A DNA stretch of 64,000 nt from Eledone cirrhosa (Eukaryota), in the NCBI GenBank assembly GCA_964016885.1, contig OZ024747.1, positions 19,344,001-19,408,000 of the forward strand. Direction: 5' to 3'. Shown here one piece after another: positions 8,315 through 13,052 of this stretch. The notes under the pieces are model-generated. The model saw nothing but the letters and a program-made list of their open reading frames with translations. It was not told the DNA's origin and ran no database searches. The first letter of the stretch is position 1. Every line of letters begins with the position of its first letter. The translations under genes were made by a program, and so were the position numbers.

Positions 8315-8604
8315 AACCAAAGATTAGTATGGTTCGTTGATTACTTAATGAATACAATTTTACAATAGATTAGAAGCACTCAACAAATAGTTTTCCAGTT
8401 TTTAATATTATTCAAAATATTAACAAATGAAAAATATTCTCATAATCAAAATATATACTTTATTATGTATATTTCAAAGGTACTTTGTTGTTTTTTAAGT
8501 ACGTCCTCATCAGACAAAATATATGATTTGATATATGACGTACCGCTACGGTCTTGATTATTCAATTCCAGTACTGACAATACTGGAATTGAATAATCAA
8601 GACC
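8315..8604 (-). mobile_element. Short PLE-derived (pLTR-like) insertion with hammerhead motif and terminal 24-bp hairpin
   Basis: Homologous to 12629-13052; hairpin arms 8550-8573/8581-8604; flanked by (TA)n-rich repeats. Confidence 0.7.
8458..8519 (-). ncRNA. Minimal type I hammerhead ribozyme motif
   Basis: Minus strand TTTTGT-CTGATGA-GGACGTAC..GTACCTTT-GAAA-TATACA-TA-ATAAAG. Confidence 0.6.
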
Positions 8605-8692
8605 ATGTGTGTATATATATACATATATATATATATATATAAATATATATAAATATATATATATATATATATATATATATATATATATATAT

Positions 8693-9056
8693 TTAAAAAG
8701 TGAGGTTTTTTTTACAAAATGAAAAATAACGGAGGTGTCCTACACGAGTGAAAGTATAAAGAAAAAAAGATGAAATCGAAAATGCAACTGGAGTCTTATT
8801 TAAAAAAAAATATATATATTTATTTGGTTCCTTTACCGGTTTCGCAGTTCTTCTGCTTTTCAAAAGTAGAGTTGAGATGGAGGGTCTGTGGTTTTTCTCA
8901 CTCGGTAGATGTGAGAAAAACCACAGACCCTCCATCTCAACTCTACGTTTGAAAAGCAGAAAAACTGCGAAACCGGAAAAGGAACCAAATAAATATAATA
9001 TTTTTTTAAAAATAAGACTCCAGTTGCATTTTCGATTTCATCTTTTTTTCTTTATA
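8693..9056. mobile_element. Fold-back pLTR-like insertion in (TA)n with degenerate hammerhead
   Basis: ~147-bp arms 8755-8901/8911-9056; minus strand reads TTGAAAA-GCAG-AAGAA-CTGC-GAAA-CCGG-TA-AAGG (core mutated). Confidence 0.7.
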
Positions 9057-9800
9057 TATATATATATATATATATATATACATATATATATATATATATA
9101 TATATATATACATATATATATATATATACATGTACAAATACATATGTATAGATATATATATATATGTATATATATATATATATACATATGTATATATATA
9201 TACATATATATATATATATATCTATACATATGTATTTGTACATGTATATATATATGTATATATATTTATATATATATATATATATATATATATATATATG
9301 TGTGTGTGTGTATACATATATATATATATAAATATATATATATACATATATATATACATGTACAAATACATATGTATAGATATATATATATATATATGTA
9401 TATATTATATATATACATATGTATATATATATACATATATGTATATATATATATACATATATATATATGTATGTATATATACACGCACACACACACATAT
9501 ATATATATAAATATATATGTATTTGTACATATATATATGTGTATGTATATATATATATGTATATATATATATATATAAATATATATATATATATATGTGT
9601 GTAATATACATGTATATATATATATATATATATATATATATATATATATATATATATATATATATATATATATATAAATAAATAAATATATAAATAAATA
9701 TATATATATATATATATATATATATATAAATAAATAAATATATAAATAAATATATATATATATATATATATATAAATAAATATATATATATACATATATA
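9057..9800. repeat. Complex (TA)n region with inverted/duplicated 28-bp TACATGTACAAATACATATGTATAGATA blocks
   Basis: Block near 9127, its reverse complement near 9219, and a direct copy near 9354. Confidence 0.8.
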
Positions 9801-9883
9801 TATTTATTAAAATAACAGATTAAAGTTTAAGCAAAGTCTTCAATTTTATTATTATTAATATACATATATATATATATATATAT

Positions 9884-10304
9884 TCGGTAGATAAGGAAGC
9901 AAATCAACTCAAGCACTCGATGCCATATTACTTCTTCAAAATAAAGATGACGGAGTAGATTTAGAATGAGGAAAATGTGTAGTTGTGGATGTTAATGAGT
10001 CCTTTATTATAGAGCCGTTATACATATTTCCATGTCGGATAGATATCCTGATTTCATCAGACAGCCAAATTGAGTAAAAGGTAACGTTTCCGAGGCAATT
10101 ATGGGTTGAAGGGAGTGGACTAAATTAGATTTATGTTTGGACAACCAAAGCATAAATCTTTTTTAGTCGCTCCCTTCAACCCATAATTGGCTCAGAAACG
10201 TTTCTTTTACTCAATTTTGCTGTCTGATGAAATCACGATATCGATTGTCATTGAAATATGTATAACGACTCATTAACATCTACAACTTCCCATTTCCTCA
10301 TTCT
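9884..10304. mobile_element. Fold-back pLTR-like insertion with hammerhead
   Basis: Arms ~9963-10140/10145-10304 with a 4-nt loop; preceded by (TA)n. Confidence 0.75.
10013..10066 (-). ncRNA. Type I hammerhead motif
   Basis: GGCTGT-CTGATGA...GAAA-TATGTA-TA-ACGGCT; stem I pairs, stem II is imperfect. Confidence 0.55.
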
Positions 10305-10384
10305 CGCTCTCTTCTCTCGCTCTCTTTATATATATATATATATATATATATATTATATATATATATATATATATATATATATAT

Positions 10385-10779
10385 ATATATTAATAAGAGG
10401 AATTCCAACTTTGTCTGATTTACTCGTTTTATTTACATCCTTTAAAATATATATAATGGTATTATAATGAATAGTATGATAGAATATTAAATTCTAAGTG
10501 TTAATTGAACAAGTACTTTCATGCTTTCGCAATCTTCAGGTTCATGATATGTGGTGACAGTCGAGTTTTGCAATTTTCAACTGTTGAAAATTGCAAACTC
10601 GACTGTCACCACATATCATGAACCTGAAGATTGCGAAAGCATGAAAGTACTTGTTCAATTAACACTTAGAATTTAATATTCTATCATACTATTTCATTAT
10701 AATACCATTATATATATTTTAAAGGATTGTAAATAAAACGAGTAAATCAGACAAAGTTGGAATTCCTCTTATTAATATA
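10385..10779. mobile_element. Near-perfect ~195-bp-arm palindrome (pLTR-like) with a hammerhead in each arm
   Basis: Centre TTCAAC-T-GTTGAA at 10582; arms are reverse complements apart from a few 1-nt indels; lies between (TA)n tracts. Confidence 0.85.
10619..10657 (+). ncRNA. Minimal type I hammerhead ribozyme motif
   Basis: TGAAC-CTGAAGA-TTGC-GAAA-GCAT-GAAA-GTAC-TT-GTTCA. Confidence 0.75.
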
Positions 10780-10977
10780 ATCTTCTATACACAATCATAC
10801 ACACCCGTGTATATTTACCTATCTATATCTATATATATATACAATATATATATATATACATAAATATATATATACATATATATATATATATATATATATA
10901 TATATATATATATATATATATATATATATATATATATATATATATATATATATATATATATATATATATGTATATAT

Positions 10978-11045
10978 GAATTATTTCCGTAAAAAAGGTA
11001 AAGGAAGGAAGAGTGCTCTATGTATAGTTCAGAGCTATTTAATTA
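10978..11045 (-). mobile_element. Terminal fragment of pLTR-like family (also at 11362-11428 and inverted at 37771-37836)
   Basis: GAATTATT(T)CCGTAAAAAGGTAAAGGAA.GAAGAGTGCTCTATGTATAGTTCAGA.CTATTTAATTA occurs twice here, each after (TA)n. Confidence 0.65.
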
Positions 11046-11241
11046 TATATGTATATATATATATATATATATAATGTAAGAGGTGAGTTTTATTGTAGTA
11101 CAATAAAGCAATGCAGATATCGGATAAGAAGCACTCTACAGTTTGTAGGACTGGACTATACATAATATATAATATATATATAATGTTGATTTAAAACTGC
11201 ACTATTCACAAGTGTTTTTTAACCTTCATATCATGTCTTCC

Positions 11242-11312
11242 TATTTTATCTGATGAAAACACAAATGTTATTGCATGATGATATTTGTTTTTGAAATGCG
11301 CATAATAAAATA
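11242..11312 (+). ncRNA. Type I hammerhead ribozyme motif in a short (TA)n-flanked insertion (11077-11343)
   Basis: TATTTTAT-CTGATGA-long stem II-GAAA-TGCGCA-TA-ATAAAATA; perfect 8-bp stem I and palindromic loop III. Confidence 0.8.
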
Positions 11313-11589
11313 CATGGAACTCTTTATACCATCTTTTGATCTTATATATTATATATATATATGAATTATTCCGTAAAAAGGTAAAGGAAAGAAGAGTGCT
11401 CTATGTATAGTTCAGAACTATTTAATTAAACTGAACTGGAAGCCAAAATGAATTGTAAGGGGACTGATACTAGCTGTGTAGATCTTTGTACTCCTTACGG
11501 ACAACAATGGCGTGGAGAATGGTCGCTGGTCTTCCACGAAACTCTTTGCACGGTCTAGTATCTTGGAGAGAGAAAAATGGAAAGGGTTA

Positions 11590-11718
11590 GAGAGAGAGAG
11601 AGAGAGAGATAGAGATAGAGAGAGAGAGAGAGAGAGAGAGATAGAGATAGAGATAGATAGAGAGAGAGAAAGAGAGAGAGAGAGAGAAAACGAGAGAGAG
11701 AGAGAGAGAGAGAGAGAG
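11590..11718. repeat. (AG)n/(ATAGAG)n microsatellite
   Basis: Direct reading. Confidence 0.95.
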
Positions 11719-11743
11719 AATGAATAACGTATACATGGAAGTC

Positions 11744-12100
11744 TGTGTACATGGAAATAATGTGTACATGGAAATAATGTGTACATGGAAATAATGTGTA
11801 CATGGAAATAATGTGTATATGGAAATAATGTGTACATGGAAATAATGTGTATATGGAAATAATGTGTATATGGAAATGATGTGTATATGGAAATAATGTG
11901 TATATGGAAATAATGTGTACATGGAAATAATGTGTATATGGAAATAATGTGTATATGGAAATAATGTGTATATGGAAATAATGTGTATATGGAAATAATG
12001 TGTACATGGAAATAATGTGTATATGGAAATAATGTGTATATGGAAATGATGTGTACATGGAAATAATGTTTATATGGAAATGATGTGTATATGGAAATGA
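11744..12100. repeat. 17-bp minisatellite TGTGTAYATGGAAATRA, about 21 copies
   Basis: Direct reading. Confidence 0.95.
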
Positions 12101-12284
12101 TATATATCGATATTCTTTATGTTTTCATATACGTTTCTATTCTGAAACACATTGTGTCAGTTCTACCGGGAATATATATATAAATATATATATGTATGTA
12201 AAAGATAAACAGAAATAACAACACAATCGGTACAGTATATGGAAGGGATATATTAGGTTAACGATTGATATAGGAGGAAGAGGG

Positions 12285-12320
12285 TCTTAACGTTTCGGAC
12301 GCTAGTCCTTCACCAGAAAG
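12285..12320 (-). ncRNA. Hammerhead motif with one core substitution, in a pLTR remnant (~12200-12346)
   Basis: TTT-CTGGTGA-AGGAC-TAGC-GTCC-GAAA-CG-TTA-AGA. Confidence 0.6.
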
Positions 12321-12483
12321 AATGAGAAATAAAATAGATTGAGGGTATATATATATATATATATATATATATATATCGTCAGTTAATCGACTTTCGTCAA
12401 ATCGGACAGAGGAAAAAAAGATTCATTGGTCTTTCTAATTGTTAATACTATCTATCGGTCGCAACTCCAGTAAAAGGAGCGAC

Positions 12484-12591
12484 GTGAAATAAAGTGTCTT
12501 GCCCAAGGACATAAAGCATTGCCTGGTCCGGGAATCGAACTCACAACCTCACGATTGCGAATTAAATTCTCTAACCTCTCAACCATGCGCC
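12484..12591 (-). mobile_element. tRNA-headed CORE-like SINE fragment
   Basis: AAGTGTCTTGCCCAAGGAC (CORE-like) plus reverse-complement GAGTTCGATTCCC B-box and GGCGCATGG head. Confidence 0.7.
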
Positions 12592-12628
12592 ATACACACA
12601 CACACACACACACACACACACACACACA

Positions 12629-13052
12629 GATTAATATGGTTCATTAATTACTCAATGAATATAGTTTTACAATAGATTAAAAGCACTCTACAAAGAAGTT
12701 TTCTGGAGTTATTAATATTATTCAAAATATTAATAAATGAAGACATTCACATAATCAAAATATATGTTTTTTTATATATTATTTCGAAGGTACTGTGCTG
12801 TTTTTCAGTACGTTCTCGTCAGATAAAATACACGAATTGATGTTATGACATACCTCAACTGTCCTGATGGTTCAATATTGCCAATACTGGAATTGAACCA
12901 TCAAGACAGTTGAGGTATGTCATAGATCAATTCATGTATTTTATCTGACGAGGACGTATTGAAAAAACAGCACAGTACCTTCGAAATATATATAATAAAA
13001 CATATATTTTGATTATGTGAATGTCTTCATTTATTAATATTTTGAATAATAT
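12629..13052. mobile_element. Fold-back pLTR-like insertion with a hammerhead in both arms
   Basis: Arms 12715-12876/12892-13052; homologous to 8315-8604; flanked by (CA)n and (TA)n. Confidence 0.8.
12939..13000 (+). ncRNA. Type I hammerhead motif
   Basis: TTTTAT-CTGACGA-GGACGTATTG..CAGTACCTTC-GAAA-TATATA-TA-ATAAAA. Confidence 0.7.

Follow-up and report, generated by a model that had tools for sequence, protein, structure and literature searches.

Fold-back inserts in an octopus genome turn at a fixed base that is probably a transcription start

Why do independent copies of a short repeat fold back on themselves at the same base? The question is raised by a 64,000-nucleotide stretch of the octopus Eledone cirrhosa (GenBank assembly GCA_964016885.1, contig OZ024747.1, positions 19,344,001 to 19,408,000 of the forward strand), which is called the window here and supplies all coordinates below, and in which small inserts belonging to two repeat families (A and B) form hairpins with their arms head to head. 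A sequence-only reading of this DNA had proposed that the turn is fixed, and that either a complementary DNA (cDNA) that reaches a fixed RNA 5' end turns back there and primes its own second strand or the master template is itself a hairpin with homogenised arms. The analysis described here argues with good confidence that the palindrome arises afresh with every insertion, its turn set by a fixed RNA 5' end, and the sequence features of these head-to-head inserts with a one-sided tail make it likely that they are the shortest insertion products of Penelope-like retroelements (PLEs). The window is AT-rich animal DNA, rich in (TA)n, and holds the following copies of the two families.

8315-8572, minus strand: long, tail-bearing arm of family A copy 1 (A1), whose RNA sense is the minus strand
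8315-8404, minus strand: one-sided tail of A1 (90 nt), running from the outer end to the preferred inner end
8573-8581, plus strand: unpaired centre of A1, native +1 to +9 of the sense strand, quasi-palindromic
8582-8604, plus strand: short arm of A1, sense +10 to +32, 23 of 23 nt complementary
12629-12876, minus strand: long arm of family A copy 2 (A2), with an 86-nt tail at 12629-12714
12877-13048, plus strand: short arm of A2 counted from +1, with the centre at 12877-12891 and a paired part at 12892-13048 (157 nt)
38460-38675: family B copy 1 (B1), with long arm 38460-38610 (91-nt tail), centre 38611-38615 (5 nt) and short arm 38616-38675
51039-51205: family B copy 2 (B2), with long arm 51039-51151 (60-nt tail), centre 51152 (1 nt) and short arm 51153-51205
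37850-37962, plus strand: third family B copy (B3), 3' part only, without fold-back

Self-BLAST of the window after masking of simple repeats recovered 12 head-to-head inverted pairs, the four fold-back copies named by the sequence-only reading all among them; of 20 shuffled controls, 19 gave none and one gave a single pair. All but one of the pairs (11/12) sit at repeat 5' ends, and the roughly 32 kb of DNA outside the satellite hold about 11 such hairpins. Each of the ten tabulated inserts has, at one end only, a unique tail of 52-168 nt. A1, A2, B1 and B2 all adjoin simple repeats, on both sides in the case of A1 and A2, and carry a 60-92-nt tail on one side; inserts of families A and B have no open reading frame (ORF), and insert sizes run from 165 to 570 bp.

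The central observation of the earlier reading was borne out: the short arms of A1 and A2 begin at the same homologous base, and the turn falls at a native 9-mer, A(C/T)TG-N-CAAT. The arm lengths it had given, 24 and about 160 bp, needed a small correction, the paired arms measuring 23 and 157 nt. The A2 long arm has lost 6 nt beside the junction, and its short arm ends at the equivalent of A1 8405-8409. B1 and B2, as had likewise been claimed, turn at homologous places within 4 nt of each other, and the short arms of both stop at TTCCTAT, followed by (AT)n. Comparison of arms with arms and of copies with copies upheld the further claim that arms are more alike than sister copies: substitutions between arms number 6/158 in A2, 0/23 in A1 and 2/59 and 5/50 in family B, as against 23/159 and 26/158 between A1 and A2 (21 sites being common to both A2 arms against A1) and 16-18 of 50 between B1 and B2, or overall 3-10% of sites for arms and 14-36% for sister copies. 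Most arm pairs among the inserts differ by 1-9% substitutions and one pair by single-base indels only. Segmental duplication with shared flanks was rejected, as blastn found no similarity between 500-bp flanks in any of four flank pairs. The fold-backs are real, exceed chance expectation and are not segmental duplications.

The likeness of the arms cannot separate fold-back from later conversion. It proves little because a palindrome at 47992-48380, made of a repeat that we take to be a tRNA-type short interspersed element (SINE), has mosaic arms, in which 11/83 inner and 3/105 outer sites differ (Fisher p=0.01); the inner-half variants resemble different dispersed copies (61062 and 61644) and the outer halves are nearly identical. 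This palindrome turns head to head exactly at the SINE 5' end, in surroundings that are not (TA)n, and sequence exchange between or into palindrome arms does occur in the genome of the window.

Copies beyond the window were sought by comparing 8314-8604 with four runs, from which 2666 contigs of this species, 8 contigs of a related species and 2445 and 2390 reads of two restriction site-associated DNA (RAD) sets aligned. The counts given here cover the best-supported rows: for variants 40 out of 157, for loose ends 24 out of 315 and for pieces 16 out of 2707. Six turns occur among the 12 joints listed, and in four of them the partner arm starts at 8572-8573; joints with 'from' positions at 8376-8396, which may in part reflect the divergence of A1 in that stretch, were not used to place long-arm truncations, nor can they show which arm folded. 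In the related species one contig crosses the centre as in A1, and two others pass the centre with the reverse complement of the 9-mer and then run into non-palindromic DNA. Because of that continuation the central 9-mer can be read as native sequence, present once and preceded by TC on the sense strand. Sequences repeatedly break off into (TA)n at 8405 (284 and 325 reads, 28 and 1 contigs, among those listed), the inner end at which the A2 short arm also stops and which recurs in both species, and the related species shares the outer end of A1. With both ends and the turn recurring, family A has three fixed points: the outer end, the inner end 90 nt in, and the turn. A pile of RAD read ends at 8567 (457/472 and 549/564) was rejected as a sign of a fixed turn, the AATT site at 8564-8567 being the restriction cut of the library; the pile at 8356/8359 is likewise an AATT cut (8356-8359) and was not used. 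Since RAD ends are restriction cuts, the raw reads carry no information on the centre. Metagenome contigs scanned by pattern for such inserts gave 0 and 0 loci, and 52 pattern-scan loci in viral contigs were rejected as family members, the longest alignment to family A being 49 nt.

What, then, is the base at which these copies turn? Counted as +1, the first base of the 9-mer lies at 8573 in A1 and 12877 in A2, the same base despite 14-16% divergence, in the context TCA(+1)(C/T)TG. The words TCACTG and TCATTG fit four to five of the six positions of the Drosophila initiator TCAKTY, and the downstream promoter element (DPE) consensus RGWYV is matched exactly at +28 to +32 in both family A copies (8600-8604 and 12904-12908); both consensuses are taken from PMC1538597, and the background is 0.019 per position for RGWYV and 0.057 for TC before an A. 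Because of this initiator-like and DPE-like context, and because the Penelope element of D. virilis is described as starting transcription inside its pseudo-long terminal repeat (pLTR), with an initiator and a DPE (PMC2377424), the turn is probably the transcription start of family A RNA. A tandem unit at 46557/47040 begins at an A(+1)GTT-like site (CA, then GTTT from the start), 68 nt before its hammerhead core, with the same spacing as family A. The 9-mer itself pairs 4/4 on the antisense strand in both alleles (one G-T) and 3/4 on the sense strand of A1, and a fold-back of the antisense strand gives the A1 junction letter for letter and that of A2 save for the 6-nt deletion.

The arms of family A also carry a minimal type I hammerhead ribozyme motif, for which cleavage is predicted.

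8464-8513, minus strand: type I hammerhead motif of A1, with core CTGATGA at 8513 and a predicted cut after 8464
12822, minus strand (long arm), and 12945, plus strand (short arm): hammerhead cores of A2, the short-arm motif having a predicted cut after 12994

The unmasked DNA, 32,050 bases, held eight matches to a type I descriptor, whereas 40 shuffles held 0.025 on average and 1 at most, and hammerhead motifs occur in several other palindromes and unfolded inserts of the window as well. Because the orientation of the hammerhead fixes polarity, the arms can be said to be joined head to head. The hammerhead cut was rejected as the fixed 5' end, since it is predicted 117 nt downstream of +1. 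Two end motifs, both picked after looking at the inserts, accompany the ends: TT(T/C)CT stands 7-16 nt before the inner end in 7/8 families (background 5% per 16 nt), and GAGYRCTY lies within the tails of 4/8 families (at most 2 in 5000 shuffles), a word that is not enriched window-wide (15 against 12.3 expected). Family B shares the head-to-head arms, one-sided tail, (TA)n target and end motifs with the hammerhead-bearing families and, judged by these features, works like a PLE insert but is not classed as one. Rfam searches of the whole window, the A2 arm and B1 gave sub-threshold hairpin-type matches only, with no ribozyme family for B1 among the 40 matches listed; the hammerhead is described as absent from some PLE clades (PMC8557442).

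The design extends to further fold-backs of the window.

8693-9056: fold-back of another family, with a 62-nt tail and a degenerate hammerhead-like core (by eye)
9885-10303: fold-back of another family, with an 80-nt tail and a CTGATGA core in each arm (10060, minus strand; 10224, plus strand)
10391-10830: young fold-back, 0 substitutions in 195 aligned nt, a hammerhead in both arms and a 1-nt centre at 10582
37585-37838: fold-back with a hammerhead 5' core on the tail-less arm only
47292-47858: fold-back with a 203-nt unpaired centre that holds a CTGATGA core on the strand of the tail-less arm; the turn is not tight
48686-49005: fold-back with a 42-nt centre, in which a hammerhead was not found

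The 203-nt centre of the insert at 47292 contains (47440-47496, minus strand) a TATA-like run about 31-33 nt upstream of TCATT, as judged by eye, and this TCATT stands 16 nt before the CTGATGA core; from its sequence this copy seems to extend upstream of its own start. By eye, its inner end at 47670-47695 is similar to the opening 35 nt of Hydra-1_Obim, one of the consensi in the supplement of PMC8557442, where GAGCACT is present in the tails of two others from Hydra, and these likenesses hint that some of the fold-back families may belong to the Hydra clade. Unfolded hammerhead-bearing mini-inserts lie between (TA)n tracts at 11183-11345, 36950-37240, 37345-37570 and 38200-38400, and two copies of the 37585 family, at 10978-11043 and 11363-11426, consist of the tail alone and lack the hammerhead part. 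The stretch 46557-47255, within (TA)n, is a retrozyme-like partial tandem in which two 216-nt hammerhead-bearing repeats (98% alike) surround a 268-nt core.

It is clear from published PLEs that this architecture is ordinary for the class and that the insertion shape has already been described: the known unit consists of a pLTR, an adjoining inverted 5'-truncated copy and a one-sided tail of 30-40 bp (Craig et al., 2021, PMC8557442; PMC3846280), and the inserts match it in their head-to-head arms, junction palindrome, one-sided tail and hammerhead in the repeat. Targets of (TA)n are also reported for Neptune, Hydra and Naiad PLEs, and the inverted pLTR of Pen2a likewise has a shared centre of 15 bp and falls short by 37 bp (PMC8557442, PMC3846280). 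The inserts of the window differ in being ORF-less and only 165-570 bp long, and in their tails of 52-168 nt (86-90 nt in family A, against the usual 30-40 bp). Palindromic inverted junctions have already been read as self-priming for PLEs (PMC3846280); the difference is that here the turn maps to one base with an initiator/DPE-like context, whereas the accounts of the junction in PMC8557442 and PMC3846280 do not tie it to a transcription start. In D. virilis Penelope the inverted terminal repeats vary in size, and the inversion point is not linked to the start in the structural descriptions of Schostak et al. (2008; PMC2377424). The Poseidon element of Anolis carolinensis has been studied in vitro (Frangieh et al., 2024; PMC11167929), with two internal reverse transcriptase (RT) starts that define the tail and with both target strands cut and extended. 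AT-rich targets are common to Poseidon and the present inserts, and hammerhead cleavage is dispensable there just as the turn is not at the cut site here; the Poseidon RT starts fall within its ORF, whereas the tails here yielded no ORF start, and the reported experiments do not address the inverted junction or second-strand priming (PMC11167929). Animal non-LTR retrozymes are, as described, similarly small non-coding PLE-derived repeats with type I hammerheads (bioRxiv 10.64898/2026.07.22.740005), but they are head-to-tail tandems, whereas A and B are single head-to-head inserts with ends away from the ribozyme cut; assignment of A and B to the retrozymes was rejected, the copies being single and head to head with no head-to-tail tandem.

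A mechanism has to account for the fixed turn, the two fixed outer ends, the hammerhead motifs of family A, the simple-repeat flanks and the subfamily variants common to both arms. The full version that we favour, with a turn fixed at the transcription start, two cDNAs and fold-back by a mini-hairpin, is held with, at best, somewhat better than even confidence. The A of TCA(+1), which lies 68 nt ahead of the hammerhead core, would be where the pLTR promoter starts the RNA. If the lizard PLE in vitro is a guide, an endonuclease would then cut both strands of a (TA)n tract, and RT would start at two internal sites near the RNA 5' end, 90 nt apart, corresponding to the inner and outer ends. Because internal starts near the RNA 5' end would run to the transcription start, the short cDNAs would all end at +1. 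Minus strong-stop DNA of long terminal repeat (LTR) elements is such a short cDNA running off the RNA 5' end, and the inner-site cDNA would similarly run off at +1 after about 170 nt; its last 9 nt would fold back, or anneal to another cDNA, and serve as primer for a sense strand that begins at +10. The sense strand would finally be joined to the outer-site cDNA, which would supply the tail. In L1 twin priming, by comparison, two primings on one RNA give an inversion with scattered breakpoints and little duplication, unlike the duplicated 5' segment and fixed turn seen here.

The call for two primings comes from the centres. In each of the four informative copies (8577, 12880, 37680 and 47490), with B1, B2 and the inserts at 8693, 9885, 10391 and 48686 omitted as uninformative or within 1 nt, the tail-less arm carries the unpaired centre, a polarity that hints at two primings. 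A tail-less cDNA cannot template a tail, so that a second cDNA from the outer site, folding of an antisense RNA, or later deletion or inversion of the centres is required. The second cDNA primed at the outer site is preferred as the source of the tail, and it fits because both strands are extended in vitro (PMC11167929). Of the earlier proposals, that the turn is not a random 5' inversion agrees with the fixed turn in sister copies. A cDNA folding back at a fixed RNA 5' end fits the data as well, and this end resembles an RNA polymerase II start; as to which strand folds, the polarity of the centres suggests the tail-less arm and not the tail-bearing one.

Several observations weigh against this reading. 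The start site was placed from DNA, in two window copies and a handful of short contigs; the initiator fit is incomplete, and the upstream TC comes from two contigs in one run of the related species and may belong to the flank. Only family A has the DPE match, which inspection by eye did not find in four other families or in the 46557 unit. Two of the six listed turn joints lie elsewhere (8526 and 8552), and the insert at 47292 turns with its 203-nt loop. A terminal mini-hairpin of four pairs is found by chance at 13% of positions and is weak, at about -0.4 to -1.2 kcal/mol. The polarity of the centres amounts to 4/4 cases (two-sided p=0.125) and could be altered by later deletion or arm-to-arm crossover. 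As for the ribozyme, an Rfam search of 12881-13050 (A2 arm) returned no hammerhead family, the minimum free energy of the motif regions was no better than that of shuffles (z -0.57 and -1.51), and family B is without a CTGANGA core in all three copies. Finally, physical linkage to an ORF was found for neither family A nor family B.

The first alternative is the simplest form of the first model offered by the sequence-only reading: a single cDNA primed at the outer, tail-bearing site reaches the RNA 5' end, turns tightly, copies itself and joins the target at the TA-rich inner site, with the asymmetry of the centre arising through later deletion or inversion. It accounts for the one-sided tail in 9/9 inserts tabulated for this purpose and for inner ends that finish in TA-like microhomology; the 9 and 15 nt that the long arms of A1 and A2 lack relative to a perfect palindrome lie between 4-5-nt direct repeats, as slippage would leave them, and in B2 and the insert at 8693 the extra central base or bases are best read as part of the long arm. 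The centre nevertheless sits on the tail-less arm in 4/4 informative copies, the opposite of a tail-bearing loop, and extra events would be needed each time, so that we regard this course as unlikely. Self-priming on antisense RNA, the template favoured, unlike here, by Arkhipova et al. (2013; PMC3846280), would have an antisense transcript fold at its 3' end and prime sense DNA; the polarity is that observed, with the antisense strand folding and sense DNA as the longer arm, and the G-T pair of the A1 allele would be a stable G-U in RNA. Such a transcript has no reason to end exactly at a sense initiator/DPE site, however, and target-primed synthesis in vitro uses sense RNA as far as reported (PMC11167929), which leaves this explanation distinctly unlikely.

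The second proposal of the earlier reading, a hairpin master, taken here as akin to a miniature inverted-repeat transposable element (MITE) or foldback-like non-autonomous element, copied whole with arms homogenised by conversion, did not hold up as well, and is in our judgement highly improbable. Both outer ends are fixed, as in an element copied whole, and the SINE palindrome demonstrates that arms exchange sequence in this genome. An inherited hairpin is nevertheless disfavoured because the junction scars differ between sisters (A1 and A2, B1 and B2), because unfolded copies exist (B3 and the 11183 and 46557 units), and because the native upstream DNA in the related species is non-palindromic; at least eight unrelated families, moreover, share the design without terminal inverted repeats at two ends. 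A MITE or foldback DNA transposon was rejected on the same anatomy, one end being the unique tail in 10/10 inserts. Least credible of all is the formation of fold-backs by host break repair or as artefacts of library or assembly. Foldback inverted duplications at breaks are reported in yeast (PMC11724301), but 11/12 inverted pairs lie at repeat 5' ends and not at random; one arm pair differs by single-base indels only, as an artefact might, but most differ by 1-9% substitutions, unlike artefacts, and the same centre is crossed by contigs of independent runs and of a second species, so that the artefact version is largely refuted.

A candidate source of enzyme lies in the window itself, alongside other residents.

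42703-45954, plus strand: intact PLE ORF, open over 1083 codons, with a hammerhead at 46251 in the 3' region behind it
13810-33620: 26-bp satellite, about 20 kb, in which several frames are open

The PLE ORF holds what we take to be RT motifs, a C-x4-C-x2-C linker and a GIY-YIG-type end. Pfam matches it to RVT_1 at E=4e-4 only, and its closest relative among the 200 matches listed is an Octopus vulgaris protein with 67% identity. It is a possible source of enzyme for the fold-back inserts, though unlinked to them: its 3' repeat has no blastn match to family A, and the motifs of family A were not found in the consensus file of PMC8557442, as searched. The N-terminal stretch is long and rich in asparagine and threonine and resembles the N-rich inserts of rotifer Penelopes. 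The element is flanked on both sides by (TA)n TTCAAAGAA (TA)n, at 42632-42660 and 46480-46555, and the left copy has the inverted 9-mer before it; this may be a target duplication or a tail. At 46150-46200 the 3' repeat contains words that are presumably NRF1-like and YY1-like, 50-100 nt upstream of the hammerhead, a promoter style that differs from that of family A. A 5'-truncated PLE copy, 90% identical to the intact one, occupies 33624-36541 and directly adjoins the satellite, which is itself preceded by a gap of 200 N at 13610-13809; kinship of the satellite with the N-terminal region of the PLE was rejected, as the alignment ends at the shared junction. On the minus strand, 52297-54450 and 62025-62631 hold decayed RT fragments of non-LTR type, which are related to each other and flanked by (TATG)n.

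How PLE inverted junctions form, and whether the template is sense or antisense, are called open in the discussions of PMC3846280 and PMC8557442. No paper in the open-licence literature was found that ties the PLE inverted junction to a start site or describes these octopus inserts, although older papers on Penelope structure may bear on this; what is new, in that the searches did not return it, is that the turn is placed at a candidate start site that has a strand-specific mini-hairpin. A turn held to a single base in several subfamilies and in two species makes sharp predictions for the junction mechanism and, if the reading is true, palindrome centres would map PLE start sites from DNA alone. 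The wider suggestion that PLEs make a discrete strong-stop cDNA between an internal RT start close to the 5' end and the transcription start, prime the second strand by a hairpin encoded in the first nine bases of the transcript and lay down two target-primed cDNAs per insertion, with by-products that would be a main source of the long near-perfect hairpins that underlie the extreme adenosine-to-inosine hyper-editing seen in octopus RNA, is a tentative one that we consider doubtful. The potential for double-stranded RNA is reported to be unusually high in octopus (PMC5625713), and it is conjectured that a density of about 11 hairpins per 32 kb or so of non-satellite DNA may feed it.

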